Source of the DNA: Bacillota bacterium
GTDB taxonomy: Bacteria; Bacillota; SHA-98; Ch115
Direction of reading: 5' to 3'
Assembly: GCA_013178415.1 (NCBI GenBank)
Contig: JABLXA010000001.1
Location: 33,445-97,444 of the forward strand
DNA length: 64,000 nucleotides
The notes under the pieces are model-generated. The model saw only the letters and a program-made list of their open reading frames with translations, searched no databases and had not been told where the DNA came from. This document shows positions 9,057-63,631 of this stretch, one piece after another; the stretch's first letter is position 1, and every line of letters begins with the position of its first letter. Made by a program: the position numbers and the translations under genes.

Positions 9057-9081
9057 AGGGCCTCACCACCTTCATTATCAG

Positions 9082-43989: not shown

Positions 43990-44631
43990 TCAACGGAAGA
44001 CCTCATCTATCTCCAATCTAAAGCCATCCAACAGGGGGCTTTCCAGTGTCGTGCCAGGCGGATAAACCTGGACAGTGGCGAGCTCCCTGCCGTTATGAGC
44101 GGCAACCTCGATGCTGTGACCGTCGGGATCCACTATCCAGAATTCGCGAACTCCATAGCGGCCGTAAATCCGGCGTTTGGTCACCCTATCCAACTCCGCG
44201 GTAGAAGGTGAGAGGATCTCGACCACTAGGTCCGGCGCGCCTTGAATATAGGCCTCTTTGATTATCCCAAGGCGTTCCAGTGAGACATACAGGATATCAG
44301 GCTGGACCACGTTATGTTCACTTAATACCACATCAATGGGAGCATCATACACTTCTCCAAGGTCACGATTCTCAACCCAGTGCCGCAGTGCCTTTTCAAT
44401 CCTCCCGGAGACTTTTTGGTGAAAAACAGATGGAGCCGGTGTCATCTTCCTCAGGTCCCCCTCCACGAGCTCATATCTTTCCCCGGACGGCATCCGGCAA
44501 TAATCTGCGTATGTAAGACGAAGATCAGCCGTATAATATTGAACTGCCGTTTCCTTCACCATATCCGGAGGCTTTGGCACACTGGGGCCCTTCATCGGAT
44601 CCTGGTCTTTCACAGTAATCACCTCGATCAT
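43990..44631 (-). CDS. Uma2-family (DUF820) putative endonuclease, paralog 2.
   Basis: About 80% identical to paralog 1, with the same motifs (YELVEGDLRKMTPAPSVFHQ, PDLVVEILSPST, YGVREFWIVDP). Confidence 0.8.
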   Translation of the reverse strand: MIEVITVKDQDPMKGPSVPKPPDMVKETAVQYYTADLRLTYADYCRMPSGERYELVEGDLRKMTPAPSVFHQKVSGRIEKALRHWVENRDLGEVYDAPIDVVLSEHNVVQPDILYVSLERLGIIKEAYIQGAPDLVVEILSPSTAELDRVTKRRIYGRYGVREFWIVDPDGHSIEVAAHNGRELATVQVYPPGTTLESPLLDGFRLEIDEVFR

Positions 44632-45591: not shown

Positions 45592-46557
45592 TTACCTCCC
45601 CTCCATAAGCTTCACATAATGTTCATACCGTGCGGGGCGTATGAATCCCGACGCGAGGGCATCTCGCACTGCACATCCTGGTTCGGTCAGGTGCGCGCAA
45701 TTGGAAAATCGGCATTTCCCTATATACGGCCTCATTTCACGAAAGCACGATGCAAGATCCTGGGCTGAAATCTCCCAAAATCCGAATTCCCTCATCCCCG
45801 CTGTATCCACCACGAAACCGCCTGCGCGGAGCTGAATGAGCCGGGAGGCCGTGGTTGTGTGGCGGCCCCGGTGTGTGATCCGACCGACCTCACCTGTCGC
45901 AAGGCCAAGTTCCGGCTCCACAGCATTGAGTAGTGACGACTTCCCCACTCCTGATGGGCCAACCACAACGGAAATCCTGCCCGCGAGGAGGGACCTGAGG
46001 TCATCTATGCCCTGGCCTGTCTTGGCGCATGTATGTAGAACTTGGTAGCCGATTTCCTCATAGGGAACGGTCATGTTGGCGGCATCCTCAGGGGAGGCAA
46101 GGTCGATCTTGTTGAGGCATATAACAGCTGGTATTCCTGAATACTCGGCTACGGCAAGGTACCGGTCAAGGCCCCGTGCCCTGAATGTAGGTTCCGCCGC
46201 CGCGTATACGATGATGATCTGGTCCACATTAGCTGCGATGACTTGCTCTCCCGGACGGCCACCTGCGGCCTTCCTGCCAAATGAATTGCGTCGCTTGCCG
46301 ATTTCCTCTATCACACCTCCGCCACCATCAAGAATGGATAGATAGACGATATCTCCAGGCGCCACTGGATTTATGGTGTTTTCAGTCTCTTTAATCAATC
46401 TCCGCCGGATTGTGCACAGGATAGGCCTGCCATCTACAAGCACTTGATAGATGTCACTTCCTATCCGGATGACCAAGCCGCTGCGGAGGTTTTCCTGTGG
46501 ACCGGATGTGATGCGGATACCACAAACATCAGTATTGGAAAGGCCTTCATTATTCAT
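45592..46557 (-). CDS. rsgA: Ribosome small-subunit-dependent GTPase A (RsgA/YjeQ). The start is at MNNEGL after GGGAGG; the ORF opens at 46590.
   Basis: OB-fold N-terminus, circularly permuted GTPase motifs (NKIDL..., GPSGVGKSSLLN, DTAG), and a C-terminal zinc finger CRFSNCAHLTEPGCAV. Confidence 0.85.
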   Translation of the reverse strand: MNNEGLSNTDVCGIRITSGPQENLRSGLVIRIGSDIYQVLVDGRPILCTIRRRLIKETENTINPVAPGDIVYLSILDGGGGVIEEIGKRRNSFGRKAAGGRPGEQVIAANVDQIIIVYAAAEPTFRARGLDRYLAVAEYSGIPAVICLNKIDLASPEDAANMTVPYEEIGYQVLHTCAKTGQGIDDLRSLLAGRISVVVGPSGVGKSSLLNAVEPELGLATGEVGRITHRGRHTTTASRLIQLRAGGFVVDTAGMREFGFWEISAQDLASCFREMRPYIGKCRFSNCAHLTEPGCAVRDALASGFIRPARYEHYVKLMEGR

Positions 46558-46852
46558 CGAAATCAGCCTCCCTATCGAAGAATTCGTCAATGAGATCTAT
46601 GGTTTCTCTATCACGGCGCGGCGGATCATGGCGCCTTCCCCGCTTTTCCTGCCGCCGTGTCTTGAGTCGTTCTTTCATCTTGTCGCGATTGCGCTTTTGT
46701 TCAAAGTCCTTTCTCAACCTCGATATCTGTCGTTCTGTCAGTCTATCAGTCACGGTTACATAACCTCCATAAGCACTTTTTTGAGAACTGCTACTACTTT
46801 GAAAATAGCTGAGCGCCATTTTCATTTTTCGTTGGTGCCGCCCCGGCGGCAT
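46550..46852 (-). CDS. Small, highly basic hypothetical protein with an acidic C-terminal tail, immediately upstream of rsgA. The real start is probably internal, giving about 66-90 aa.
   Basis: Lys/Arg-rich (RLRKDFEQKRNRDKMKERLKTRRQEKRGRRH...DEFFDREADFDE). It contains the rsgA RBS at its 3' end, and its N-terminal 10 codons lie inside a repeat element. Confidence 0.35.
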   Translation of the reverse strand: MPPGRHQRKMKMALSYFQSSSSSQKSAYGGYVTVTDRLTERQISRLRKDFEQKRNRDKMKERLKTRRQEKRGRRHDPPRRDRETIDLIDEFFDREADFDE

Positions 46853-46942
46853 GGGGGGCTATCCTGAAAATAGCGGCGCCCGCCTCGGGAGATTTTCATC
46901 CCCCTGATGATGCCGCTATAGCGGCATGGGAGTCTACCCTGA
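46835..46942 (+). repeat. Composite intergenic repeat element: two GC-hairpin units (GTGCCGC-CCCG-GCGGCATGGGGGGCTATCCTGA and GATGCCGC-TATA-GCGGCATGGGAGTCTACCCTGA) separated by a conserved 41-nt linker.
   Basis: The two units are seen directly. The linker plus second unit recur at 60973-61048, and single hairpin units recur at 47047-47070 and 48711-48741 (inverted). Confidence 0.5.
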
Positions 46943-47046
46943 CATTGCTTTTGGTACGCAAAAAGGCCATGGGCGACACCTTACCCACGGCCGGCATAGT
47001 TTTATCCTGCGCCTAATATCCTTGCTCATCAACCGGGCGAATAGAA

Positions 47047-47070
47047 ATGCCCGCTATCGCGGGCATGCAG
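47047..47070 (+). repeat. Hairpin-unit variant of the same repeat family (ATGCCCGC-TATC-GCGGGCATGCAG).
   Basis: Same architecture: a GC stem, a 4-nt TAT(A/C) loop, then CATG. Confidence 0.3.
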
Positions 47071-47485: not shown

Positions 47486-47941
47486 TCATTCAAGGGGTGG
47501 TATCTTTTGGCTGCGCGTCTCGATGAAGGAAAGAAACTCCTCTATTTCTGTTTTAACCCTTATAAAGGTCTCCTGGATATTGTCTACCAATGGTTGCATT
47601 CGGGCGGGAGATAGGTGGAAGGTATATACATTTCGGACCACGTGACGGAAACCTCTATATGCATCTAGGCTATCCCTTGTCTTCTTTGAAATAACGGGGG
47701 GGCGAACCATTTCGATTTCTATTGCCATCTGGTGCAATAACTCTTGATGCCAGTTGTCTCCCTCCGGTTTGCTTTGATCAATATTGGCGGCAATTAATTC
47801 GAAAATCCTCTCCAGACCGGTATAGAGGCTATGTAGATTAAATGCTACGCTATCAAGATAAAGATCATCATTTTCGCGCCTAGCTCGTTCCCATCCGAGA
47901 TGAATACGCTCGGATGGCCTGTTGAAGTTCAGAGAGTTCAT
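47486..47941 (-). CDS. HEPN-domain protein, the putative toxin partner of the upstream nucleotidyltransferase (HepT or NTase-substrate-binding type).
   Basis: 151 aa and helical. Contains AYRGFRHVVRNVYTFH, which is an Rx4-6H / RNxxxH-like HEPN motif. Sits directly downstream of the MNT gene. Confidence 0.55.
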   Translation of the reverse strand: MNSLNFNRPSERIHLGWERARRENDDLYLDSVAFNLHSLYTGLERIFELIAANIDQSKPEGDNWHQELLHQMAIEIEMVRPPVISKKTRDSLDAYRGFRHVVRNVYTFHLSPARMQPLVDNIQETFIRVKTEIEEFLSFIETRSQKIPPLE

Positions 47942-47982
47942 CGCATACTCGACTGGCCATGGTTAGATGCTTCTTGCCCATA

Positions 47983-48396
47983 TTATATCTCCATCCCTTC
48001 GCCTTCAATAGCTCTGCGCAGAGATTCGCGGCAAGATTCCGGATCGACCAAGTCTATCTTGAATCTCGTGCTTAACCCTATAACTTCCCCCACTGCGGCG
48101 TAAAATTTATGGTCCGAGACCCCCCATGCTGCCAAATCAATATCAGACCATAGGCTGAATCGGGAGCGGTCGACCAATGAGCCAAAGACTACCACCTTCG
48201 AGGCGCCATACCTGCCTTTCAATATGTCTGCAGCCATCTTGGCAACTTCCCACGCTTCCCGGTAACGCTCGACCAGGAATGACTCAGCCGGGAGAGAATC
48301 GTCCGTGAATGTGAGGGGATATTTCCTAGCATAATAGGCAGCCAGGCTGTCAGGCTGCACGTCCATATCCCATATACCTCCCTGACGAAATGTCAT
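47983..48396 (-). CDS. Minimal nucleotidyltransferase (MNT/MntA-like, Pol-beta superfamily), the putative antitoxin.
   Basis: VVVFGSLVDRSRFSLWSDIDLAAW, i.e. the GS-x9-13-DxD nucleotidyltransferase motif. Confidence 0.7.
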   Translation of the reverse strand: MTFRQGGIWDMDVQPDSLAAYYARKYPLTFTDDSLPAESFLVERYREAWEVAKMAADILKGRYGASKVVVFGSLVDRSRFSLWSDIDLAAWGVSDHKFYAAVGEVIGLSTRFKIDLVDPESCRESLRRAIEGEGMEI

Positions 48397-48710
48397 TGAT
48401 AGACCTTATCCCTCAAATCCTTCTCAAAGGCCCTCCTAGTTCAGTATATCATAACCACGCTCTAGACTCTAGGTGATCCTGCGGCCGGGTATGTGTCAAG
48501 AAGATTGGTGCAACCTTCCCCCTTGATTTGAAATCCATTTTTTGGTTGCGATCCCGGTCACACGACGTCAGGTCCGGTAATCCTCCCATGGGGAACCTCG
48601 ACCAGGGGGCTGCATAAGGTAACACACCCGCGGCCCTGGCGCTGCGGTCTTAGCTTAGCATGCTATAATCTTGCATGCTATCGTCATCACCGGATTGGTT
48701 CCTTAAAACA

Positions 48711-48741
48711 GGGTAGACTCCCATGCCGCTGTAGCGGCACC
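48711..48741 (-). repeat. Inverted copy of the hairpin unit (reverse complement GGTGCCGC-TACA-GCGGCATGGGAGTCTACCC).
   Basis: 28 of 30 nt match unit 2 of the element at 46909-46942. Confidence 0.4.
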
Positions 48742-49280
48742 AGAAGAATGGGAACCGCAGCGTTCGATTCTTGGGGCGGCAAAGCCGGTGTCCTTGGGAA
48801 GACATACCCTCTTCCAGGCTCGGTAAAGCTCGAGTGAATTCTCTGCCTGCAGGCCTGGGTACCGTAATGAAAAATTACGGCGTATAGCAGATAAACACAG
48901 CAAATGTAGGATTTAATACGACAGAAAATGAACACCAAGCTGTCATAGTGTGAGGCGGTTAAGAGGATATTGTCCATCGGATACTATAGCATGGGGAATA
49001 ATATGAGAACAGTGAGTTTTGGGATGTGCGCTTGGCGACTCAAGATAGTGGAAGATGTCCGCCTGCGGCGGGAGCATTTTGGCGGGCAGGCCATCCAAAT
49101 AACTACAGGTATGCTGCCGGCCACAGGGAGCGATTCCAAGTTTATTGTGCGGCGGACGGGGCTCTGCCCGGGCTCACTTGGTCTCGGGGGCTTCATGCAC
49201 GGGTTTTGCAGGTGGCGTGGCAATATATATCATCGTTCGGTATTCCCGAGCCTTGGTCTAACTGCAGGGGGGTGGATATC

Positions 49281-50018: not shown

Positions 50019-50193
50019 TGGGGACAGGAAACGTTCGTGTAAAACTTAATGGGGCAGGAAACCGAGGTATTGATGGACTTCGCAAGGTCGGCTATGATGA
50101 ATATAGATTTGCTCGTGCAAGTATCTATCGTTTCAAATCGTAAGGTCTTTTTGGTGCTTCGCATCATAAAAACTATGTTATTACCTTGTAGAG

Positions 50194-50973: not shown

Positions 50974-51344
50974 TTTCGAACAGCTATAGATTGCCAAGTC
51001 CAGAATTGAAAGATAACCTAGCTATGTCACCACGCGGTTGCCGGGCGCGCCGCACACTGTTAGCTCATAATTTCTAAGTTCGAGCTTGGTCATCTATAGC
51101 TGCCAATGGCGCAGGGGCGGTGCCATCAGAATCATGAGAATGGCGGTGGCCAATCTTCGGGGGTAGGTCCTCATACTGCTACGCCAGCATTACCAGAATG
51201 ATGAAAACCGGGGCGGCTCATTTTCTAGGTGGCTTTCGATTGAAGATAGATGACTTGGAAAGAGAAAATACTTTCTCCCGGCAGGATTTCATATATCAAT
51301 ATCGAATTGAATTATTGAGATGCCGTTGGAGCGGTCCAATAAAA

Positions 51345-52506: not shown

Positions 52507-53574
52507 ATGACTCTGGAGGTGGCCGTCATGGGCGGAGATCACGACTCACCAATTCGCGTAGGCATAGCGGGCCTTGGCCGTAGCGGCTGGGACATTCATG
52601 CCAAAATGCTGGGGAACATGGGGGATAAATTCAGGATTGTGGCAGTAACTGATAAGGAGACCTCGCGCCTGAAGGAAGCAGAGGAAACGCTGGGCTGTCG
52701 GGCATATGGCCAATATGAGGAACTTTTGGGTGATGCGGAAGTAGAATTGGTCATAGTAGCTATGCCCAGCCATCTTCATGCCCCATATTCTATCGCAGCC
52801 CTTCGCGCCGGGAAGGCGGTGCTTTGTGAAAAGCCGATGGCTCCCAGCCTTAAAGAAGCTGATGAAATGATCAGTGTATCTAAGGAGACGGGGCGACTTC
52901 TCACAGTGTTTCAGAATCGACGGTATTCAAAGGATTTTGTAAAGGTACGCGAGGTAATCAGTTCCGGCAGGCTGGGTCGCATTGTCCAGATCCGCATCGC
53001 TCTCAACGGCTTTGGTCGTCGATGGGACTGGCAGACCCTAAAAGAATTTGGCGGAGGCACCCTCAACAATAATGGTATTCATCTCATAGACAGGGCGATG
53101 GTTCTTATCGATGAGAAGGAACCTGAGATATTTTGTCATCTTGACAGGGCCCTGACCCTGGGAGACGCAGATGATCATGTAAAGGTGATTTTGAAGGCCC
53201 CTGGGGAGCCTTTGGTCGACATAGAATTAACAAGCGCTTGCGCCTATCCAACCGAAAACTGGCTCGTGATGGGGACACAGGGGACATTGATCGGCACAGC
53301 AACCGAACTTAGGTGGAAATACATAGATCCAGCTGAACTCCCGCACAGGGAAGTGGATCGAAAGCCTACGCCGGACAGGAGTTACAATAGAGAGGATCTT
53401 CACTGGTATGAAGAAACATGGAGCGCGGCAGATGATCCTGGAATGGGTGAGGCTGCTTTTTATGTCGACCTGTATAATACGATCCGTAAAGGCGCTCCGC
53501 TCGCTGTAACCCCGGAGAGTGTTCGTAAGAGAATAGCTTTACTGCAACGGTGCCATGAGATATCCGGTCTATAG
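52507..53574 (+). CDS. Gfo/Idh/MocA-family NAD(P)-dependent oxidoreductase.
   Basis: Rossmann motif IRVGIAGLGRSGWDIH, and the EKP motif (AVLCEKPMAP). Confidence 0.85.
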   Translation: MTLEVAVMGGDHDSPIRVGIAGLGRSGWDIHAKMLGNMGDKFRIVAVTDKETSRLKEAEETLGCRAYGQYEELLGDAEVELVIVAMPSHLHAPYSIAALRAGKAVLCEKPMAPSLKEADEMISVSKETGRLLTVFQNRRYSKDFVKVREVISSGRLGRIVQIRIALNGFGRRWDWQTLKEFGGGTLNNNGIHLIDRAMVLIDEKEPEIFCHLDRALTLGDADDHVKVILKAPGEPLVDIELTSACAYPTENWLVMGTQGTLIGTATELRWKYIDPAELPHREVDRKPTPDRSYNREDLHWYEETWSAADDPGMGEAAFYVDLYNTIRKGAPLAVTPESVRKRIALLQRCHEISGL

Positions 53575-53586
53575 GAGGGAATTCCA

Positions 53587-54423
53587 TTGAATTTATCTAT
53601 CTGCCACTATAGTTTCCACAGGCGCTGGAAAGAGGAAAACTGGACTCCTGAGAGGCTATGCGAGGAGGTAAAGGCTCTAGGGATCGGAGCCGTGGATTTC
53701 CATGCAGGCTTGCTTGGTCAGATCGAAGGCGCAGTTGATAATATCAAAGCTGCGCTTTCAAAGACAGGACTCGCTCTGTCAGGGCTCTCCCTTTCCACTA
53801 ATTTCAACCTTGATGATCCCGGTGCGTATCAGGATATGGTGAATAATACGATTGCATGGATGCGTGCGGCATCTGAGTTGGGTGCTCCGGTATCGAGGAT
53901 CTTCGGTGGCGCCCTTAAGAACAGGCTTGAAGTCGATGAAGGGACCAAGAAGGGCATCTTCCAGCGTGTAATTGATGCCCTCGGAAGACTTGCCCATGAG
54001 GCAGAGAGACTCGGGCTTGTGTTGGCGCTCGAAAATCATGGAGGGCTTCCATGTACAGGCGAGGAGCAGGTCGAAATGATAGAGAAGGTAGGGTCCAAGT
54101 ATCTTCGCGCCACTATCGACGTAGGAAATTACATGGCGGGTGGCCAGGAGGCGGTAGAAGGCACAAGGATAGCCGCCAAGTACTGTGCCTATGTTCACTT
54201 TAAGGATTTCAAGAAATGCCCGGACCCTTCGCTTCCATGGGGATGGGGCATCCAAGCGTGCACCGTGGGAAAGGGCGATGTGGATCATCTCGGCTGCCTC
54301 AGGGAACTCAAAGCCGCGGGCTACGACGGGTATATTGCCCTTGAGTATGAAGGCCCCGACGATGAGAAGATAGGGGTGCCGGAGAGTATCGAGTTTATGA
54401 AGGCTGTTGCGAGCAAAGTCTGA
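53587..54423 (+). CDS. Sugar phosphate isomerase/epimerase (xylose-isomerase-like TIM barrel).
   Basis: 278 aa with the AP_endonuc_2-like pattern (ALENHGG..., IDVGNY..., HFKD). Confidence 0.8.
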   Translation: MNLSICHYSFHRRWKEENWTPERLCEEVKALGIGAVDFHAGLLGQIEGAVDNIKAALSKTGLALSGLSLSTNFNLDDPGAYQDMVNNTIAWMRAASELGAPVSRIFGGALKNRLEVDEGTKKGIFQRVIDALGRLAHEAERLGLVLALENHGGLPCTGEEQVEMIEKVGSKYLRATIDVGNYMAGGQEAVEGTRIAAKYCAYVHFKDFKKCPDPSLPWGWGIQACTVGKGDVDHLGCLRELKAAGYDGYIALEYEGPDDEKIGVPESIEFMKAVASKV

Positions 54424-54851
54424 GCCCGCCCAATTACCTCCTGAGCCCGGGATTCATCCTCAGCGTAAGCAGGATGGATCCCGGGTTGCACTATGATTAT
54501 GTCTGCATCGGGCACAGACTTCGCTCGCCTACCTCCGTGGTGGGATAGATCGCATCAGCCCGTGGAGCTCCTGCGGCAAAGGTCAATGCTGCCTGGATGG
54601 CTTCACGCATCAGCATTGCATTCTGAACATATTGACATATTCAAAACCTTGAAAGGCAAGGTTACGTCAAAGTCATGACCAGAATTCGGGAGAGAAATGA
54701 AGCAATGATCTGCATGAGCCAGTTGAAGAGTAGAAAAGGCCATCTTTCAACCTGTCATCTAGGAATTTCGGCCAATTAGGGCATGACAAACCAAGCCTGC
54801 ATTAGGTGTTTTTATGCAGACCTTCGAGGGAAGGGCCCGGTATGGTTAGGC

Positions 54852-55591
54852 TTATAACCCGATAAGCCCCAGGGCACGGCGAGGGTCTCGAGCATGATAG
54901 CGAATCGCTTTAGCTATACTGGTATATCCCCGGAGACGAAACAGGCTGATGGCAAGATTCTGCAATGTAGCCATGGCCCGCGGGCCCGAGCCTATACGTA
55001 CCTGGGAGCGATCCTCATCCAAAGTGACATCTCGCACCCAGTGTAGACGGTCCTCAATTTCCTATTGACCCCGTGTGAGGGTTAAAAGCCGATTTGGGCT
55101 GGCCTTCTCTGGAGAGAGGTTTGTCACACCATAGGCTATTTTATGCCGGAGGAGTTCCCCACGTAGATCGGTTGTGATCCTTTCAATCCGGAAGACCTGG
55201 GCGAGGTATGGAAAATTAAGATAATCATTTGGTGCTATGCTGGTTTGGACCTTTGAGCAATAGTTGCCCATGCAGATATTCTAGCAGACTATGCGAAAAA
55301 ACGTCAGAGCCTTTATGAGAATCTCATAAGTCGCGGCTCAACAGGGACTTTGACGTTGTTCTGGGGAGTAGACCCAGTGCTATTGTCCATTTCTTCTTGG
55401 GCCTTCCCAGCCTTCGCCGTCCACTCAGCGGCTCGGCACTCCCAATCCCCACCCCCAGCTTCAGGTGGGCCAGTGTGTCGATGCTGCAAGATTCGCTTTA
55501 TGCTATGGCCTTCGAGGTTGCTCGGCCCCTGTGCCAGTCCTACCTCGAAGGAGAGGAGCGTTTTCCTTTGAGCCTTCTCCTTGCCGGTCAC
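54852..55591 (-). pseudogene. ISAs1-like (IS4-superfamily) DDE transposase C-terminal region, broken into 3 ORFs by an in-frame stop and frameshifts.
   Basis: The fragments read ...RLLTLTRGQ*EIEDRLHWVRDVTLDEDRSQVRIGSGPRAMATLQNLAISLFRL, matching the ISAs1 tail (RGHWxIEN-LHWxxDVxFxEDxSRxR...NLALSLLR). Confidence 0.5.
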
Positions 55592-55901
55592 CCAAGCAAG
55601 AAGTCAAGGGTTGCTATGCGGCCATATGAGCAATAACCGCGACCGGACTTTCACCGGCAAGATTGTCAAGGTTACAGGCTGCACGAGCTAGAATGCCTGA
55701 CAGATACTGGGAAACATCAACGGTCTCACGGATTTATACTTAGTGGCCAATTCCCGGGTCACGGCCTGCTTTTCGCGCAGAATGAGTGGCATATGCTGTT
55801 CACCCTTTCCTAACAGGTACTCAAGGGTTCTAGGCATACATCGCTCACTCCTTTCATGCACATTTTTGATATGAGGCAATGAAGCGGTTTCAAGCACATT
55901 T

Positions 55902-56132
55902 TTGATGAGGCAATTCGCGGAAAGCCTCGGGTATCCGTATACCTTCCATAGCCTGCGGCACTTTCACGCATCCGCATTGATCAAAGCCGGTGTCCCCATT
56001 AAAGTCATAAGCGAAAGGTTAGGCCATAGCTCAATATCCGTCACCATGGACATATACGGCCATCTGCTCCCGGGAATGCAAAAGGAGGCCGCGGAGGCAT
56101 TTGAGGAACTGCTGTCAAAAAGTGGCTCGTGA
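55902..56132 (+). pseudogene. Tyrosine recombinase (phage-type integrase), C-terminal 76-aa fragment.
   Basis: HSLRHFHASALIKAGVPIKVISERLGHSSISVTMDIYGHL is the R-H-R-Y catalytic-domain tail. No upstream coding region in frame. A 20-22-nt direct duplication (CACATTTTTGAT(AT)GAGGCAAT) sits at its 5' edge. Confidence 0.55.
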
Positions 56133-56212
56133 CCATTCTGTGACCGTCTCGAGTTCCAAACACAAAACGGCAGGTATTCCCAGTCCGGAAAGCCTTGCCG
56201 TTGTTATATTCT

Positions 56213-56288
56213 TGGAGCCGACGACCGGGATCGAACCGGTGACCTGCGCATTACGAGTGCGCCGCTCTGCCTGCTGAGCTACGTCGGC
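56213..56288 (-). tRNA. tRNA-Thr (anticodon CGT).
   Basis: Manual cloverleaf: acceptor GCCGACG/CGTCGGC, D-arm GCTC-AGCAGGCA-GAGC, anticodon arm GCGCA-CTCGTAA-TGCGC, T-arm ACCGG-TTCGATC-CCGGT, CCA encoded. Confidence 0.8.
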
Positions 56289-56314
56289 ATTGTGATCGTG
56301 CGGGCCCATAAATA

Positions 56315-56389
56315 TGGAGCGGATGACGGGATTCGAACCCGCGGCCCTCGGCTTGGGAAGCCGATGTTCTACCACTAAACTACATCCGC
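56315..56389 (-). tRNA. tRNA-Gly (anticodon CCC).
   Basis: Manual fold: acceptor GCGGATG/CATCCGC, anticodon arm TCGGC-TTCCCAA-GCCGA, T-loop TTCGAAT, CCA encoded. Confidence 0.7.
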
Positions 56390-56556
56390 TCAAACGAGGA
56401 AACCCTTTTTTACTCAAATATATTCTACCTTGAAGTCAGGAATTTTGCAACCCCTTTTTTCCATGTAAGTCAACGATCTGACGGGAAATCAACCCGGCCT
56501 TTCGGGGTATATTACCATAATAGAGGTAAAGTTCTCGTGAGATCGGGGGTTATAGG

Positions 56557-57498
56557 ATGGCTAAAGGCCAAAAGAGTTTTTCAGACTATGGGAATAGGTG
56601 CATCATTCCATCCATTTCGCGTTCTGTCACGGCATTCATTGTGTTCTTAATCTCATTGCTGGGTCTATCTTTGGGGACCTTCACATCATGGGAGATGGGG
56701 ATTTTAAGAATAAATATCGGGTCGACCTGGAGCTCCGCATTTATATGCCGTGCACAGACCCCCCTGGGGAGTCGCGAGCTATCATATGGATCGCGGGGGG
56801 ATGATGTGCTTGAGTTGCAATATCGCTTGAATTTGTTGGGTTTCTATATTAAGGTGCTTGATGGAATATATGGAAATGAAACCCTCAGGGCGGTATTGGA
56901 ATTTCAGGCTGCGGCGAATCTATCAAGGACCGGAAAAGTGGATGCATCTACCGCCCAGGCCATACTATCAGGAAAGGTGAAGAAAGGCACGGGACTTCAA
57001 GAGGTTTCCCAAGATTATAGAACAGAGAAACCTCCAGCGCCAAAGCAGACTCCCAGACCGTCGGAGTCCAAAACGCCAACATCTAAAACTACGCCGCGCG
57101 AAAAGCAGGTCACAAAGAACCAAGCCGCTGGACCTAAAACCCTCAGTTCCGCGCCGGCAGCGAAGAGACAGGACATCGCGCACGTGGTGAAGAAGGGCGA
57201 GTGCCTGTCCATCCTGGGGGAAAGGTATAATGTGTCAGTAAAGGAGATAATGAAGCTAAATGGCTTACAAAATACAATAATATACATTGGCCAGAGACTT
57301 ACAATACCTGCCGGGTCTGGTGTGGCCAAGGGAAAAGACGCTCATAAGAACATAGAATATTTAGTGAAAGATGGTGATTGCCTTTCTACCATCGCAGCTA
57401 GCTTTAAAATCACTATCTCCAATATCATCAGGGCAAACAATATAAAAGATCCAGATTTCATCAGGGCCGGTCAGACTCTTACAATTCCCCTGAGCTAG
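56557..57498 (+). CDS. Peptidoglycan-binding protein: N-terminal TM, a PG_binding_1 domain, a Pro/Thr/Lys-rich linker, and two LysM domains.
   Basis: PG-binding motif GDDVLELQYRLNLLGFY...DGIYGNETLRAVLEFQ. Two LysM repeats (HVVKKGECLSILGERYNVSVKEIMKLNGL...GQRLTIP and YLVKDGDCLSTIAASFKITISNIIRANNI...GQTLTIP). Confidence 0.75.
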   Translation: MAKGQKSFSDYGNRCIIPSISRSVTAFIVFLISLLGLSLGTFTSWEMGILRINIGSTWSSAFICRAQTPLGSRELSYGSRGDDVLELQYRLNLLGFYIKVLDGIYGNETLRAVLEFQAAANLSRTGKVDASTAQAILSGKVKKGTGLQEVSQDYRTEKPPAPKQTPRPSESKTPTSKTTPREKQVTKNQAAGPKTLSSAPAAKRQDIAHVVKKGECLSILGERYNVSVKEIMKLNGLQNTIIYIGQRLTIPAGSGVAKGKDAHKNIEYLVKDGDCLSTIAASFKITISNIIRANNIKDPDFIRAGQTLTIPLS

Positions 57499-57524
57499 TT
57501 CTTGACGGGTCATGGTCGAATCTA

Positions 57525-57645
57525 GATGATGGGCCGGGCCTGAACCCGCGGGACCTTTGGCACCGATGGGGTGGCGACCAGTGAGATGACGGGCCTAACC
57601 TGAGCCTCCGGGACCTCTAGCGCTAGTGGATGGCGGCCAGTGACT
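57525..57645. repeat. Tandem duplication of a ~60-nt unit immediately after the LysM gene (GATGATGGGCCGGGCCTGAACCCGCGGGACCTTTGGCACCGATGGGGTGGCGACCAGTGA, followed by a diverged second copy).
   Basis: Seen directly; the two units are about 75% identical. Confidence 0.4.
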
Positions 57646-57736
57646 GGGCTATGCTCAAAGCAGAGTAGGCATGGTATAATTTTATTGAAGGATCTTTTGG
57701 GATGTTATACATGATTGTAGATGGGGGGGAGCGGCC

Positions 57737-58600
57737 ATGGAGGTCACCAATCGATATCTTAATTCCTTGTCCGAGGCGGACCTGGATTTTATCATACGCA
57801 CAGTCGTCACAAAGCGGAGCGATTATGACGAAATCCGCGGAATCGTCAAGGGCAAGGGCGACCTCATCGACATCATGCTGGATGACGAAAGGCTATTCCG
57901 GGCAGTTATGGCCGATGATGACATCTTTCTAAAACTTTCACCATTTCTACTATTTATCATCTTGCTAAGGAAAGTGTACCGGGATCTCAAGGAGACGACC
58001 TTTACGATAGAACCCGTTGGCAAGAAGGAACGTCTTCCAGTCTTTGATGCGCCACAAGTGGTAGAGTTGCTAGGTGATAAGGATATCTGCACCTATCTGG
58101 CCGATATGCTGAGCTCATTTACGAAGGTAGGCACGACAACTCTATATTTCAAGAACGGTCCGACTCTTTCGAAGCGGGTTTTCAATGATACAGATCTCGA
58201 GGATGTTGTTGACCTTTCAAATATACTGCCAGAGGATTCGCGATTCAGCCTGTATAAGAGAGCCGCAGATATCTGTTTATTTCTGACTGGCGTCTTTCCC
58301 GACTATATATTCTCCAAGGAAGAGGAAGGGAATGGACTCCCAAAGAATAAAGAGCCTGGAAACGGTCAAGGCGGCCTCGAAGCTTATGAAAAGCAAGGAC
58401 AGATGTTCTATCGGCAGGCGGCCTTGCATAAGGTGGCCAAAGCCGTTGGGCTGGACCGTGTCTTGCTGACTCTGTCGGAGAAATTCATTCTTGCGCGAAA
58501 GCCTCTCACCATAATTGCGGATAGATATATGGGGGCAAAAAGGGATCAATGGTTCAACCAGTGGGCCCAGTCACCGACAAGTCCGGGGTTTGGCGCCTGA
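57737..58600 (+). CDS. Hypothetical protein (287 aa), unknown family.
   Basis: Long ORF with good coding-like composition, no TM helix, no recognisable motif. Confidence 0.5.
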   Translation: MEVTNRYLNSLSEADLDFIIRTVVTKRSDYDEIRGIVKGKGDLIDIMLDDERLFRAVMADDDIFLKLSPFLLFIILLRKVYRDLKETTFTIEPVGKKERLPVFDAPQVVELLGDKDICTYLADMLSSFTKVGTTTLYFKNGPTLSKRVFNDTDLEDVVDLSNILPEDSRFSLYKRAADICLFLTGVFPDYIFSKEEEGNGLPKNKEPGNGQGGLEAYEKQGQMFYRQAALHKVAKAVGLDRVLLTLSEKFILARKPLTIIADRYMGAKRDQWFNQWAQSPTSPGFGA

Positions 58601-58829
58601 TAAATGCTCTGCTGCGGATTACATCCGCTCAAAGGCAAGAGAAGCCGGAGTACGATTAAAGCCTGGGCGATGAAAAGAAAAAACAGGAATTGACTACAAA
58701 TCCCACAATGATTATTAAATTCGGTCTCTTAAGTAGCCTGCCACTTAGCGGGTAATCCGAACCGGTGGGATTGTAGTGGTAGTTTAGATCTTGCGATACC
58801 CTCTTGGGGCCTCAAGCCCTTGATATTGT

Positions 58830-58905
58830 TGGTGGGCGAAACAGGACTTGAACCTGTGACCTCCTAGATGTGAACCAGGCGCTCTGCCAGCTGAGCTATT
58901 CGCCC
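58830..58905 (-). tRNA. tRNA-Val (anticodon CAC).
   Basis: Manual fold: acceptor GGGCGAA/TTCGCCC, D-arm GCTC-AGCTGGCA-GAGC, anticodon arm CCTGG-TTCACAT-CTAGG, T-arm ACAGG-TTCAAGT-CCTGT, discriminator A, CCA encoded. Confidence 0.75.
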
Positions 58906-59256
58906 ACGACTTCCGTGACGATTTTATTTTACCTTATATGCTCCAAAGCGTCAAGCGCCGTTTTGAAATTGCGGGCGCCATCCAATATACTTAAAATTGC
59001 CTCGAGGCTGGTTGTTGAACCGGTGCTTGCTGGCATAGAGACCTCAACCTCCGTCGAGGGAAGTTCGAGGTCTCTATATTTGTCCATCAAGACCCCGGTT
59101 TCCTGCCCCATGATGGATAGGCGGGCAGGACCTCTCGCAGGAAACCTCTTCAGGGTGTCTTTTGGCAACGAAAAGAAGGGCCATGAATATTTGATGCAGC
59201 GGTGGTCAAGATATAGGTGTAGTGGCTAATAATCAGCTTTTGGGGGTGAAAACTAA

Positions 59257-59592
59257 GTGGGCGATTGGGTCCGTCACCTTGTTAGGTTTGTGGTTTCAGC
59301 TTTGGTTCTTATGTTTGTAGGGCTTATCGTGCCAGGCTTTAGTACGTTGAGTTTCCTTAACGCCCTGATTGCAGCGGCTGTCATCACGATAGTCGGCTAT
59401 GTGATCGAGGCGGTGATTGGCAGGAATGTTTCGCCCTACGGGAGAGGAATCGTGGGATTCCTGGTTTCTGCGGCCGTGATCTATGCTGCTCAATTCGTGG
59501 TGCCCACGATGCGCGTGACGGTCTTAGGCGCTTTGATAGCGGCGTTCGTCATCGGGTTGATCGATATGTTCATTCCTACCACACTTCGCTGA
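59257..59592 (+). CDS. Small 4-TM membrane protein, phage-holin-4_2 (DUF360)-like.
   Basis: 111 aa with four hydrophobic helices, and a LNALIAAAVITIVGYVIEAVIG pattern that resembles the DUF360 family. Confidence 0.45.
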   Translation: MGDWVRHLVRFVVSALVLMFVGLIVPGFSTLSFLNALIAAAVITIVGYVIEAVIGRNVSPYGRGIVGFLVSAAVIYAAQFVVPTMRVTVLGALIAAFVIGLIDMFIPTTLR

Positions 59593-59829
59593 CTAGGTTT
59601 CATGGATTCACTCCATGAAGATGAGCGCGCTGCATTCCCCATTTCTGGATGGGAATGAGGTGCAGTGATTCTACAACTAAAAGGCCACTCTAACAAGAGA
59701 GGGGAACGTCCCCTCTCTGTTCCTTTCCTCGGGTTCCAAAGGCAGGATTGGACGAATAGGATGAAGAAATGAAATAGAAATTATTGATACAGCATCGTAG
59801 ATGGGCCTGTCCGGGCTTGGCACTATATT

Positions 59830-60783
59830 ATGGCATTTATAATCTGCCTGAGGCACCATATACGGGTTATCTGGAATCTAAGGGGGGTGGACACATTGGC
59901 GCAAGGGCGAGATTTCATCTTTTCGAACCTGCTGCCAGCGGATAAGCTCTGGGACATCGCGTTTGCGATCAGTAGAGGGGCTGCTTCAATAGGAATTACG
60001 GTTATTGTGGCCGCCTTGCTCATGAAATTCAGCAGCGTGTTGATTGACCGGGCATTGACCCAGGCGGAAAAAAATAAGACGGGCTATATAGATGGACGAA
60101 AGATAAAGACCCTCGCCCCGCTGCTCAAGAGCGTCATCCGATATACCATCTATTTATTTGCCGGGCTCTCAATCCTGAGCAAGTTGGGGGTCGATACTAG
60201 AAGTCTCCTGGCAGGCGCCGGGATCGCCGGGCTTGCCCTGGGCTTTGGAGCACAGAGCCTGGTGAAGGATGTAATCAATGGCTTTTTCATCCTTTTCGAG
60301 GATCAATTCGCGGTCGGGGATTATGTAGGCATCAATAATGTGTCAGGAATCGTCGAAGATGTGGGGCTCAGGGTGACGCGCATTCGGGATTTCGGCGGTC
60401 AACTCCATATCGTCCCTAACAGCCAGATTTCGCAGGTCACCAATTATATGGGATCCGCCATGAGGGTGCTTTTTGAGGTTGGCGTTTCTTATGATACCGA
60501 TATCGATCGCGCCCTGGAACTGCTGGCGCAGGACTTCGAGAAGGCAAAGACCGAGATCCCGGGCATAGTAGATGGACCGACGGCTCTGGGTGTCAGCGAT
60601 CTTGCCGATTCATCCATCAAGATCATGGTGATAGCAAAGACACAGCCTATGGAGCAATGGCGGGTTGAGCGGGCTTTGAAGAAGCGTATCAAAGATCTAT
60701 TCGACCAGGAAGGGATAAGAATACCGTATCCACATATGAATGTGATTTTGGAGGGCAAGGATGGCCAAATTCCACATTGGTGA
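59830..60783 (+). CDS. Mechanosensitive ion channel, MscS family. The true start may lie downstream of 59830.
   Basis: TM3 pore helix and beta domain (AGAGIAGLALGFGAQSLVKDVINGFFILFEDQFAVGDYV...GIVEDVGLRVTRIRDFGGQLHIVPNS). Confidence 0.75.
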   Translation: MAFIICLRHHIRVIWNLRGVDTLAQGRDFIFSNLLPADKLWDIAFAISRGAASIGITVIVAALLMKFSSVLIDRALTQAEKNKTGYIDGRKIKTLAPLLKSVIRYTIYLFAGLSILSKLGVDTRSLLAGAGIAGLALGFGAQSLVKDVINGFFILFEDQFAVGDYVGINNVSGIVEDVGLRVTRIRDFGGQLHIVPNSQISQVTNYMGSAMRVLFEVGVSYDTDIDRALELLAQDFEKAKTEIPGIVDGPTALGVSDLADSSIKIMVIAKTQPMEQWRVERALKKRIKDLFDQEGIRIPYPHMNVILEGKDGQIPHW

Positions 60784-60976
60784 TATAGTGAGAATGAGAA
60801 AACAGCATCCCTGCGGCAGCTTTCTCTGGGAAGTCCTGAGGGTTGGCGCAGATTTCAGGATCAGGTGCAGGGGGTGCCAGAGGGTTGTTATGCTCCCTCG
60901 GGCCAAGTTCGAGAAAAGCGTAAAGGGGATAGTATCATCGGCTTTCGACCAGTCTATTGATCTAACCCAAGGATAG
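60761..60976 (+). CDS. DUF951-family small protein.
   Basis: GDIVRMRKQHPCGSFLWEVLRVGADFRIRCRGCQRVVMLPRAKFEK matches the DUF951 consensus (HPCGS..W...R.GADI.I.C.GC.R.VM). Confidence 0.65.
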   Translation: MAKFHIGDIVRMRKQHPCGSFLWEVLRVGADFRIRCRGCQRVVMLPRAKFEKSVKGIVSSAFDQSIDLTQG

Positions 60977-61048
60977 GGGCGCCCGCCTCGGGGGATTATC
61001 ATCCCTCTGATGGCGCCGCCGAAGCAGCATGGGAGTCTGTCTACGAAG
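60973..61048 (+). repeat. Second copy of the intergenic repeat element (linker plus hairpin unit), located between the DUF951 gene and rpsF.
   Basis: GGCGCCCGCCTCGGGGGATTATCATCCCTCTGATGGCGCCGCCGAAGCAGCATGGGAGTCTGTCTA is about 85% identical to 46875-46937. Confidence 0.45.
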
Positions 61049-61235
61049 AAATAGATAGATGGCCAGTGAGGAAGATCATGCCTCCTATGCCTTAACCTTC
61101 TTCCCTTTGACTTTATGCGCCCTATGCGAGATCACGCAGAATATAATTGTGTTTGCGGGACGTGAATGTTATAATATTTAAGATCCCTGCTCCGCGCACG
61201 TCGCGGGGCCGTAAGTCCGAGGGGAGGTGAGCAGG

Positions 61236-61523
61236 GTGCGGGATTATGAGGTAATGTTTGTAATCCGGCCCGACCTGGATGAGGCTGCTATAGAGGCCAC
61301 CATCGCCAAGTTTGAGGAGCTTATCAAAAACGGCGGTGGAGAAATCGAAAAGCTGGACAGGTGGGGCAAGAGGCGTCTCGCCTACGAGATCAATCATAGC
61401 ACTGAGGGATTCTATGTAGTGATTGATTTCAAGGCTACGACTGAGACTGCGCATGAGGTCGATAGGGTGCTCAGGATTACCGACGAAGTGATCCGCCATC
61501 TTGTTACGCGAAGAGAGAAGTAG
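61236..61523 (+). CDS. rpsF: 30S ribosomal protein S6 (GTG start after GGAGGTGA).
   Basis: (M)[29 protein letters not shown]... is canonical bS6. Confidence 0.9.
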
Positions 61524-61545
61524 TCGCCCTGGGGTGGTGTTATTC

Positions 61546-61947
61546 ATGAATCGAGTAGTGCTTGTTGGCCGGCTTGTTCGTGATCCGATATTGCGCTATA
61601 CCCAGCCGGGAGTGCCTGTGGCGACGTTTACGATAGCCGTGAACAGGTCTTTCACGAACCAGCAAGGGGAGCGGGAAGCAGATTTTATAGATATCGTTGT
61701 ATGGAGAAATCAGGCTGAAACCTGTTCCCACTATCTTACGAAGGGACGACTCGTAGGTATCGATGGCCGCCTGCAGATTCGTTCCTATGAAACTGCCGAT
61801 GGCCAGAAGAGGCGGGCTGCGGAGGTCGTTGCGGATCGCGTGGAATTCCTGGATAGGGGTGGCCGGGAGGGCCAGGGGTATTCTGAAGATGAGATCGGGC
61901 AGTCTCCCGGAGATTTTGATGCCCCGGATGATGCACCTTCTATGTGA
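61546..61947 (+). CDS. ssb: Single-stranded DNA-binding protein.
   Basis: [36 protein letters not shown]-fold and an acidic C-terminal tail. The ORF opens at 61501; the start is chosen at MNRV after GGGGTGG. Confidence 0.85.
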
Positions 61948-61992
61948 TTGATCTAGTTTTTGAGATACTGCCTTTTATCAGGAGGGATTTAG

Positions 61993-62223
61993 GTGAGACG
62001 CGAGAAGGGGAAAAAAGGCAAGAAGCGCGTATGCAGCTTCTGCGTTGATAAGGTAGAATTCATTGATTACAAGGATGCCTCTAAATTACGTAAGTATATT
62101 ACAGACAGGGGCAAGATCCTGCCAAAGAGGATCTCGGGAAATTGCGCCCGTCATCAGCGGGCATTGACTACTGCCATAAAGAGGGCAAGGCAGATGGCCC
62201 TTTTGCCATATACCGTGGAATGA
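61993..62223 (+). CDS. rpsR: 30S ribosomal protein S18 (GTG start).
   Basis: [64 protein letters not shown] is canonical bS18. Confidence 0.9.
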
Positions 62224-62646
62224 GTGGCAGGGGCTTCCATAACAAGGGTGAAAGAGGGGGGCCCGGGTGCTCCCCTTTTAATCGTTGCGGGGAGGGAGAT
62301 CCGGATGCTTGACGAACACTTCAATATGAGCACGCAGGTCGCTCGTGGGGTGGATATCGCGCGGGAGGTGAAGGCCATCGAGTGGCTCAAAACAGAGCTT
62401 CTCGGGAGCCTGGCATCCCTATATCAGGCAATGGCTCGCGACAGCGAGGACCTTGCCTCTGAATCTCTTTCCAATTTGATCATCGGGACTTACCTTCTTG
62501 CCAGCCGCCTTGGGATAAGCTTCGCCGCCCTTGATGCCAAGGTCGAGAGCAAGATTATGGCTAATATAGAGAAGGAACATGAGTTGGAGAAATGGTACGG
62601 AGATTTCAGCGCTCTTCAAAAGTATATGAAGGAGAGGAAGAGGTGA
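62224..62646 (+). CDS. Small helical protein, possibly a MazG-like nucleotide pyrophosphohydrolase-fold protein. The start is uncertain; an internal Met at 62305 is possible.
   Basis: 140 aa and helical. ...EWLKTELLGSLASLYQAMARDSEDLASESLSNLIIGTYLLASRLGISFAALDAKVESKI resembles MazG/EEXXE-type helices. Confidence 0.35.
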   Translation: MAGASITRVKEGGPGAPLLIVAGREIRMLDEHFNMSTQVARGVDIAREVKAIEWLKTELLGSLASLYQAMARDSEDLASESLSNLIIGTYLLASRLGISFAALDAKVESKIMANIEKEHELEKWYGDFSALQKYMKERKR

Positions 62647-62656
62647 GGCAATAGTA

Positions 62657-63601
62657 ATGCAGGATCGCACATCCACGAAGGCGATGGTAGAAGGAGCACT
62701 CTTGGTCTCCATAACGATCCTCCTGTGTGTTCTAGACACCTATATTCCTTTCCTGGCGCTGGTGTACCCGATCCCTATAGTCGTGCTGGTGACAAGACAT
62801 GGTTTGCGTTCCGGCGTTCTGGCCACCCTCATCGCAGTCCTAGGGACCAGCGTAATCACTGGTCCTATTCAGGGCGTGACTGTTTTGGCAAAGGTGGGAA
62901 TAGCGGGGGTATCTTTGGGCGAATGCCTGCGCCGCAAATTGGCGCCTGCACTGACGATAGGGATCACGAGTATAGCAGTAGCTCTTTCCGTAGCGCTTCT
63001 TTTCGGCATCTCAGCCGCAGCTTTTGGATTTTCCCTGGCACAATTGGAAAGAGAATTTACTACGAGTATACAGAGCGCTATATCATTGTATCGAAATCTG
63101 GGCATGCCTGAGAAGGAACTAGCGACCGCCAAGCAAAGCCTTGAGCAGATGCTTGCAATTGCCAAGATTTCCTTTCCCGCGATCGTGCTCCTGGCTGTTA
63201 TAATGTTGAGTGTGATAAATTATCTACTGGCGACATTTGTATTGCGAAGGCTTCGCTATGAGATCCCCACATTGCCAAAATTCCAGACCTGGCATCTTGC
63301 ATGGTACTGGGGATGGGGGTATATTCTTGGTGGTGTCTTGACTGTTCTGGGACAATATTATCATCAGGATATCATCTTCAGGACGGGTTTTAATCTCATG
63401 GCGGTGTTTTCATATATTTTCCTGATCCAGGGACTTTCCATCGCCTGGTTTTTCATGGATAGATATAAGGTAAGCATCCCAGTTCGATATTTGCTGGTAT
63501 TCTTCCTGGCCTTTACAAGATTGTTTTCGCAGGTTCTGGTATGGGCAGGGCTTCTCGACGGCTGGTTTGATTTCAGGAAGATCAGGGCCAGAGCTGCTTG
63601 A
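62657..63601 (+). CDS. yybS: DUF2232 (YybS-family) polytopic membrane protein.
   Basis: 314 aa with about 9 TM helices, positioned between rpsR and rplI as yybS is in Bacillota. Confidence 0.65.
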   Translation: MQDRTSTKAMVEGALLVSITILLCVLDTYIPFLALVYPIPIVVLVTRHGLRSGVLATLIAVLGTSVITGPIQGVTVLAKVGIAGVSLGECLRRKLAPALTIGITSIAVALSVALLFGISAAAFGFSLAQLEREFTTSIQSAISLYRNLGMPEKELATAKQSLEQMLAIAKISFPAIVLLAVIMLSVINYLLATFVLRRLRYEIPTLPKFQTWHLAWYWGWGYILGGVLTVLGQYYHQDIIFRTGFNLMAVFSYIFLIQGLSIAWFFMDRYKVSIPVRYLLVFFLAFTRLFSQVLVWAGLLDGWFDFRKIRARAA

Positions 63602-63631
63602 TTCTCATGCTTAATTCGGGGGGCGTTGGGG

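Follow-up and report, generated by a model that had tools for sequence, protein, structure and literature searches.

Hairpin-bearing repeats upstream of rsgA and elsewhere in a Bacillota genome, probably copies of a non-autonomous mobile element

The spacer upstream of rsgA in a Bacillota bacterium (contig JABLXA010000001.1) contains two GC-rich hairpins whose sequence recurs elsewhere on the same contig, which raises the question of what kind of repeat this is. All positions refer to a stretch of 64,000 nt of this contig unless another contig is named, and we will use the term "window" for this whole stretch. The original prediction described a composite of two hairpin units at 46835-46942 and assigned it to a REP/MITE-like or small-RNA-like family with at least four copies, all of them intergenic and specific to this genome.

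The repeat unit, the composite, and the copies in the window

In the alignment of all copies, the basic repeat unit is ~48 nt long and has the form TTTTCATCCCTCTGnTGGTGCCGC-loop-GCGGCATGGGAGTCTACCC. Its conservation begins ~16 nt upstream of the stem, at TTTTCAT, and ends sharply after CTACCC. Upstream of rsgA, two such units are present in direct orientation and are joined by a ~26-nt linker. Hairpin A (GTGCCGC-CCCG-GCGGCAT, 46835-46852) and hairpin B (ATGCCGC-TATA-GCGGCAT, 46910-46927) are each followed by GGGRGNCTAYCC. Both are on the top strand, hairpin A 16 nt from the 5' end of the composite and hairpin B 12 nt from its 3' end. Because the conserved unit begins ~16 nt upstream of the hairpin, the composite is defined here as 46819-46939; both hairpins of the original prediction are retained and its boundaries are not. 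The ends of the composite, TTTTCAT... and ...CTACCC, are direct repeats and not inverted repeats of each other. Terminal inverted repeats and target duplications, for which a check had been proposed, were looked for at the junctions of the composite and at the solo copies, and neither was seen.

The repeat family is real, beyond chance. With up to three mismatches, the 21-mer GCGGCATGGGAGTCTACCCTG has 3 matches in the window, compared with 0 in 100 shuffles. A repeat finder gives a direct repeat between 46859-46935 and 60962-61038 (81% identity over 77 nt; blastn E=1e-16). The predicted recurrence at 60973-61048 is thus confirmed as such, with a shifted position and an identity below the ~85% first given. 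The predicted inverted single copy at 48711-48741 also holds, as an inverted repeat between 46908-46941 and 48709-48742 (94% over 34 nt). A unit profile built from a hand alignment of the copies recovers A (46818-46865), B (46892-46940), C (48754-48710, minus strand), and D (60996-61038), and it also gives weak matches at 51207-51161 and 51137-51103 on the minus strand.

Table 1. Repeat copies and neighbouring hairpins in the window
Feature	Position	Strand	Description
Full composite element, 121 nt	46819-46939	+	Sequence, unit profile matches, block missing in relative L028
Unit A	46819-46865	+	Part of composite
Linker	46866-46891	+	Part of composite
Unit B	46892-46939	+	Part of composite
Solo unit C	48710-48754	-	Between divergent MNT (-) and DUF421-like (+) genes
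Copies E-F	51096-51207	-	Decayed full composite (unit-linker-unit) between LysE-like and LacI-family genes
Copy D	60962-61044	+	Linker and second unit, 5'-truncated or decayed composite; 81% over 77 nt, E=1e-16
Copy G, tentative	15945-15995	-	Diverged solo unit; weak match, nhmmer E about 0.05-0.5
Terminator-like hairpin	46965-46992	-	GGCCGTGGGTAAGGTGTCGCCCATGGCC then TTTTTG; not a family member; conserved in L021, L024, L026, L028
Terminator-like hairpin	47047-47066	-	ATGCCCGCGATAGCGGGCAT then TTCTATT; not a family member; conserved in L024, L026, L028

The copies differ in their state of preservation (Table 1), and several are visibly decayed by point mutation, truncation, and small indels. 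Solo unit C has 0 mismatches over the 21-mer and a profile E of 1e-10. Copy D has a 4-nt GTCT duplication in its tail and a weakened stem. Two copies were missed in the original prediction, namely E-F and G. The E-F region aligns collinearly with the whole of 46812-46950 (two collinear blastn HSPs, E=0.017 each; weak unit profile matches) and thus represents the whole composite a second time, in decayed form. Copy G reads TCCCATCCTTTCGACGGTGCCGGC-CGAAA-GCCGGCATGGAGGAC and has a compensated stem change (C-G to G-C, giving the stem GCCGGC/GCCGGC); judged from this sequence, it probably belongs to the family. A-B, E-F, and D are collinear including the linker, and the second units of all three share CTGATGG. 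The presence of the linker in D and the shared CTGATGG identify the composite, rather than the single unit, as the unit of duplication.

Altogether, about 7 units are present at 5 loci in 64 kb, and five or more loci have unrelated flanks. The count of at least four copies is thus exceeded, although one of the units originally listed (47047-47070) is not a member of the family. Most copies are intergenic, as had been proposed, except copy D, which covers the last codons and the stop of a DUF951 ORF and lies upstream of rpsF. The copies mostly adjoin the 5' ends of genes and not the 3' ends. Their orientation relative to the neighbouring genes is mixed, with D in sense and A-B and E-F in antisense. 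Since both orientations are found within 15 kb, the copies show no replication-strand bias.

Other features of the window have been observed alongside the repeats. Between copies A-B and C, an MNT-like nucleotidyltransferase and HepT-like ORF pair (47486-48396, minus strand) looks like a toxin-antitoxin module, as judged from the translations alone. The pair is missing from the rsgA neighbourhood of relatives, and a second pair with Pfam Polbeta (weak) and HepT-like_2 matches is found just past the window end (L004 18407-19287). The two arms of an inverted repeat of 30 nt (50049-50078 and 59082-59111, 93%) both start ATGGGGCAGGAAACC (MGQET...) and probably mark where two paralogous small ORFs begin, which face in opposite directions, 9 kb from each other, on either side of a variable region. 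A 527-nt inverted repeat (7237-7763 and 43994-44520, 75% identity) presumably represents paralogous genes. At 55498-55660 on the minus strand, within 54424-56115, there is a match to group II intron D1-D4 (49.2 vs gathering 49). This ~1.7-kb stretch adjoins two tRNA genes and contains no ORF of at least 90 aa save a doubtful one of 92 aa, and no ORF of reverse-transcriptase size.

The rsgA leader and the block missing from relatives

The composite lies in the leader of an operon formed by a small ORF and rsgA. The small ORF (46550-46753, minus strand) encodes a conserved, very basic protein of 67 aa (VTDRLTERQISRLRKDFEQKRNRDKMKERLK...), and its stop overlaps the rsgA start (GATGAATAA). It is found upstream of rsgA in all relatives examined and has no Pfam match on record. 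In all relatives, it begins at a conserved GGAGG and GTG, the latter being at 46753 in the window. The ATG at 46852, inside unit A, opens the longest ORF, and the conserved start is 99 nt downstream of it. The ATG at 46852 is thus not the real start and only adds a spurious 33-codon N-terminal extension to the small ORF. The earlier statement that a repeat copy supplies the first ATG of this ORF holds for the longest ORF and is an artefact of choosing it; the conserved start is the GTG.

In the relatives, the shared order of the leader is two terminator-like hairpins, a short variable spacer, and the GGAGG and GTG of the small basic ORF. The two tandem hairpins upstream of the operon are conserved in sequence in the relatives and could be a conserved leader or attenuator, beyond a terminator of the upstream HepT gene. 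In the window, the hairpin at 46965-46992 directly adjoins the 3' end of the composite. The other one is the supposed single unit at 47047-47070. It is without the CATGGGAG...CTACCC tail, resembles an intrinsic terminator, and is conserved in relatives without the family, and is thus an ordinary conserved hairpin. A promoter or terminator role of the repeat units themselves has been rejected, as no consensus site is found on any unit and the terminator predictions fall on the two conserved hairpins nearby. A short peptide or ribosome binding site on the lower strand (GAGGGATGAAAA) has also been rejected, because the downstream ORF lengths are inconsistent and there is no proper SD-to-start spacing.

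The closest relative recovered, L028 (87% RsgA identity), has homologous flanks on both sides and is without the block at this position. L028 reads ...GCGTACCGAGAGCAACGCCA/TGGCAGTATTTCTCAAGG... and the window reads ...GCGTACCAAAAGCAATGTCA[121 nt]TGGCGCTCAGCTATTTTCAAAG.... On the lower strand of the window, the block between GCGTACCAAAAGCAATGTCA and TGGCGCTCAGCTATTTTCAAAG runs from GGGTAGAC to ATGAAAA, and these 121 nt are exactly 46939-46819. The ends of the block coincide with the limits of the unit as derived separately from the copies in other organisms. A comparison of CGCCA/TGGCAG in L028 with TGTCA[121 nt]TGGCGC in the window shows no duplication, with the junction uncertain by a few bases, since identity in the spacer is only ~70% and the position of the gap varies among automatic alignments. 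Three further relatives also have no copy upstream of rsgA; the RsgA identities of the relatives other than L028 are 79% (L026), 78% (L021-23), and 75% (L024-25). As the composite is missing from the same leader in four relatives, a function as a cis-regulatory leader of rsgA has been rejected. More broadly, no copy is present in ~100 kb from six relatives (rsgA loci, the DUF951 loci L030 and L032, and L036, a relative of the L015 organism described below). The block may also be missing from L028 by a precise deletion in that lineage. L020, a public short-read (Logan) contig carrying this rsgA, stops at 46820, a single base within the 5' boundary of the composite. This is as expected for a repeat, and small hairpin repeats break metagenome assemblies in this way.

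The window DUF951 protein is also encoded on metagenome contigs from biogas fermenters and in the NCBI MAG GCA_012842525.1. From 52515 or 56210 onward, these strains share 98.9-99.0% identity with the window. Copy D is present in all recovered strains of the species. No presence/absence differences between strains were seen; the other strains cover only copy D, and all carry it. A strain breakpoint is located at ~52515, where L004 is 98.9% identical over 52515-64000 and unrelated to the left; there, L004 1-1753 has an SBP_bac_5 gene in the place of the LacI-family gene of the window. In a comparison of matching positions, gene order was not conserved between L015 and its relative L036.

The surroundings of copy D differ from those in relatives in another respect. 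In relatives, ychF is found between DUF951 and rpsF (L030 10246-11343; L032 10215-11294). This organism and its sister strains are without ychF there (60977-61226), and it is not found elsewhere in the window. Copy D lies in the spacer left by ychF, not exactly where homology resumes; a position of D at the exact junction of the ychF loss has been rejected, since homology to the relatives resumes ~100 nt away. The rpsF leader (61150-61226) is conserved across relatives and consists of a TATAAT box followed by a hairpin, CCCTGCTCCGCGCAnGnCGCGGGGCC, just before the SD. Judged from its sequence, it may be an S6/S18-type autoregulatory leader; no Rfam match is found in it at E up to 10.

Related units in other organisms and tests of RNA and enzyme involvement

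Relatives of the repeat have been sought by exact 19-mer and pattern scans of genome and metagenome collections. True relatives are present in a Thermincola sp. MAG (L003), in two contigs of one organism (L013 and L015), and in a contig of 58% GC (L016). The same unit is found in all of them, and the repeat is therefore not specific to this genome. The L013/L015 organism has a CGGC-domain protein that is ~70% identical to that of Desulfoscipio gibsoniae. Across organisms of 46-58% GC, the unit is ~85-90% conserved. Further 19-mer matches (L001, L002/L017, L014, L018, and L019) have been rejected as chance or coding matches, and their number fits the arithmetic chance expectation.

L015 contains at least five units in 13.5 kb. 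In this contig, a ~300-nt element has the unit as its 3' end and is located at 8800-9096, 13187-12892, and 326-683, with a partial copy at 1860-1695, and the copies are 84-90% identical to each other. A diverged homologue of the element is found at 11446-11746 of L016. A long-range helix closes the body in both L015 (GGGTGCCCCGGTGGTTTCC with GGAAATCACCGGGTCACCC) and L016 (GGCCGGGTGTTGTCCCGG with CCTGGGACAATCACCCGGCC), and the L016 helix keeps its pairing through a sequence different from that of L015. On the other hand, the L015 copies carry uncompensated changes that disrupt their internal stems, a pattern expected of repeats in decay. At 13229-12890, L015 shows a unit, a 240-nt body, and a unit, which is formally parallel to the unit-linker-unit order of the window. 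Homology between the window linker and the ~240-nt L015 body has been rejected, as 21 of 200 shuffled linkers score as well, and the body of the long element is not found within the window. The 5' end of the ~300-nt element has no hairpin and reads GTTTCACyCnyCC..CTTCATTyCTACCyT (L015 8760-8800 and 1860-1900; L016 11446-11480). In two cases, this end overlaps, on the other strand, the Shine-Dalgarno sequence and start of a divergent neighbour gene, one a DEAD-box helicase and the other a DtxR-family regulator.

The suggested Rfam search has been run with Rfam 15, and scans of the window and of the copies gave no match on any of the copies, either at gathering or with E relaxed to 10. The only Rfam match in the related long elements is a marginal, partial TwoAYGGAY match in L016 (11553-11618, minus strand). 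It scores 44.1 vs gathering 43, covers only model positions 46-112, and comprises two adjacent hairpins with AAGGAGG and CAGGACG loops inside the long element. Over 12 copies, the stem is paired in 93% of cells, and stem covariation is not above controls. The pair at the stem base is G.U, A-U, or G-C on the top strand only (G.T as DNA). Single units fold well as single-stranded DNA (z about -4), whereas the decayed D and E do not. Compared with shuffles, the composite has a z of about -2.3 as DNA and of -1.3 and -1.9 as RNA. The sense orientation of D and the antisense orientation of A-B and E-F argue against a strand-specific RNA role. The small-RNA reading of the original prediction is thus unsupported, given no Rfam match, mixed orientation, and almost no stem covariation.

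No gene for a mobilising enzyme was detected in the sequence covered (~71 kb of the source organism, and the related loci). Transposase domains were found neither in the mid-sized window ORFs that were checked nor in L003, L015, and L016. A tblastn search with an approximate IS200 TnpA query gave no match, and no Y1 transposase, TnpB, or RAYT was found in the window or related loci. BLAST found no match for the composite among phage records or for the long element of L015 among plasmid records, and scans of viral contigs with three patterns gave nothing save one chance half-match. A description of this repeat family was not found in Rfam or in the literature searched.

Origin of the repeats and comparison with known systems

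The flagged repeats are probably a non-autonomous mobile repeat. This reading is based on the discrete extra block with sharp, reproducible ends, on the varied decay of the copies, and on a distribution that is patchy among close relatives while the end sequence is conserved in distant anaerobic Firmicutes. The mobile entity in this genome would be the 121-nt composite of two ~48-nt direct units and a ~26-nt linker. An enzyme acting in trans, we infer, would recognise the hairpins on single-stranded DNA. Candidates would be a HUH/Y1 transposase, either of the IS200/IS605 type, as for the gene-less PATE, or a REP-associated relative. Copies would insert between genes, with no detectable target duplication and no terminal inverted repeats, and would then decay by point mutation, truncation, and small indels. 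Their effects on neighbours, such as the rsgA-operon leader and the DUF951 stop codon, would be incidental. That a protein-less composite of 121 nt, which cannot move on its own, is moved in trans in this manner has, as a whole explanation, about an even chance of being correct. A HUH or single-strand mechanism specifically is suggested by analogy and is put forward tentatively. Counting against mobility are the absence of a transposase in the window and related loci, the absence of a fixed 5' target motif, and the absence of strain-level presence/absence differences. The 5' flanks of independent copies differ, being GCCA (A-B), CCGG (E-F), GCGG (C), and TAGA (L003). In an extended and unlikely form of this reading, the unit would be the conserved end of an undescribed HUH-type family in anaerobic spore-forming Firmicutes. 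The structured ~300-nt forms of L015 and L016 would be protein-less elements with a guide-RNA-like scaffold of the omega-RNA type, and the window composites minimal end-to-end derivatives. If true, this would be a new PATE/omega-RNA lineage without the usual fixed target motif.

Other origins account for part of the same evidence. The copies could form a REP/BIME-like host repeat kept by a domesticated RAYT for host functions (transcript stabilisation, protein binding, or supercoiling control) rather than by selfish transposition. The GC-rich hairpin, the intergenic location, and the dimers fit this idea, since REPs are described in dimers 20-100 bp apart (PMC3733652), as do the GTAG 5' of the hairpin on the lower strand (GGGTAGAC-TCCCAT-GCCGC) and the strong conservation of the unit across taxa. 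However, the CTAC/GTAG is 9 nt beyond the stem (GCGGCAT-GGGAGT-CTAC) and not next to the palindrome, the units of A-B and of E-F share one orientation, unlike the inverted pairs of REPINs or BIMEs, and the conserved unit reaches ~16 nt and 12 nt past the palindrome. GTAG REPs have also been reported from phyla other than Firmicutes (PMC3733652), the copies here are mostly located by gene 5' ends, several are decaying, and no RAYT was found. We therefore consider a REP/BIME-like host repeat unlikely. A structured RNA, in the form of a small RNA, a cis-regulatory leader, or an omega-RNA-like 3' scaffold of a guide RNA borne by a transposon, with the window copies as remnants of the ~300-nt form, is quite unlikely as well. 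In its favour, the ~300-nt element that terminates in the unit in L015 and L016 has a long-range closing helix, with the pairing kept in L016, G.U pairs favour the top strand, and the composite folds somewhat better than shuffles; PATE elements also often carry omega-RNAs (PMC10055086). It is opposed by the Rfam searches, in which the marginal TwoAYGGAY match in L016 stands alone, by the lack of significant stem covariation, by the mixed orientation, and by the uncompensated changes in the L015 internal stems. In addition, the window has no long body and its linker is not demonstrably homologous to that of L015, and the block is not in the rsgA leader of relatives, so it is no conserved regulator of the operon.

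Leftovers of site-specific recombination or local duplication (att-like or core sites that once flanked an integrative element, since excised or internally deleted, or sequence spread by gene conversion), with no dedicated transposition, could produce direct terminal repeats around a short linker and the unit-body-unit arrangement at 13229-12890 of L015, and copy D does sit where ychF is missing compared with relatives. Such leftovers are very unlikely given at least 5 loci in 64 kb with unrelated flanks, the recurrence of the whole composite with the same linker, the lack of an integrase adjoining any copy, and the ~100 nt that separate D from the point at which homology to the rpsF leader of relatives resumes. 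Lastly, the geometry of a repeat of ~34 nt, a spacer of ~41 nt, and a repeat, together with the partly palindromic repeats, resembles a two-repeat orphan CRISPR-like mini-array. This reading is hardly credible, because the "spacer" is itself shared by the copies (81% with D, collinear in E-F), its 3' half (TTTTCATCCCTCTG) is conserved beside solo units in other organisms, and the two repeats differ in loop and tail. The sole Rfam CRISPR match, a sub-threshold one (CRISPR-DR28, E = 5.3), is on the non-member hairpin at 47043-47066, and there is none on the units.

Considered as probable mobile repeats, the copies are a well-supported finding of an ordinary kind, with practical consequences for annotation. 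They mislead gene callers, here through 33 false codons at the N-terminus of the small ORF, and a second copy supplies the stop codon of a gene. They can also rewire leader regions of housekeeping operons, among them rsgA and rpsF. A family profile would aid the annotation of uncultured Firmicutes from biogas reactors, and the mobilising enzyme, if found, would bring a case from Firmicutes into the REP/PATE group of single-strand elements.

Among known systems, the MITE, BOX, RUP, and Bacillus bcr1 families are similar in being non-coding, intergenic, and ~100-150 nt long, in having modular or truncated copies, and in their ability to alter gene ends. We know of no sequence similarity of the composite to any of these families. 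The window composite differs from MITEs in that it is without terminal inverted repeats and target-site duplication. REP, BIME, and REPIN sequences are GC-rich intergenic stem-loops, often paired 20-100 bp apart, with GTAG on one side, and are thought to be moved by a HUH tyrosine transposase (RAYT). REPs often exceed 100 copies per genome, and the RAYT gene is flanked by REPs. The window family differs from them in the GTAG placed off the palindrome, the direct pairs, the longer conserved sequence, the Firmicute host, and the location at gene 5' ends. REPs are defined by a GTAG (or CGTC) tetranucleotide abutting the palindrome at one end, and GTAG REPs have been reported in Proteobacteria, Cyanobacteria, Chloroflexi, and PVC, not in Firmicutes (PMC3733652). 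The initial label "REP/MITE-like" is thus appropriate for multicopy hairpins that lie between genes as a discrete extra block, but neither the abutting GTAG and inverted pairs of REPs nor the terminal inverted repeats and target duplication of MITEs are seen.

The anatomy of the composite appears closest, by analogy, to that of PATEs, the gene-less derivatives of IS200/IS605 elements, for which transposition proceeds through single strands ("peel and paste") and is carried out by a Y1/HUH transposase, TnpA (PMC5934647, PMC10055086). Classical IS200/IS605 elements keep a conserved target motif 5' of their left end. The composite has no such conserved motif, its two ends share the ~48-nt unit and not the hairpin alone, no tnpA or tnpB with the same ends has been found, and a strand bias is not apparent. 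IS200/IS605 elements carry imperfect palindromes a little inside each of their ends, integrate with no target duplication, and leave no scar on excision, and gene-less PATE-like derivatives occur in Firmicutes (PMC5934647, PMC10055086). The composite is likewise short and protein-less, with hairpins of the same orientation a few bases inside each end, whose spacing from the ends (16 and 12 nt) is comparable in magnitude to that in IS608. It has no terminal inverted repeats, no target duplication is visible at a junction placed to within a few bases, it is a clean extra block compared with a relative, and its longer relatives in L015 and L016 carry a structured internal region. The family is best filed among the known small hairpin-bearing non-autonomous repeats.
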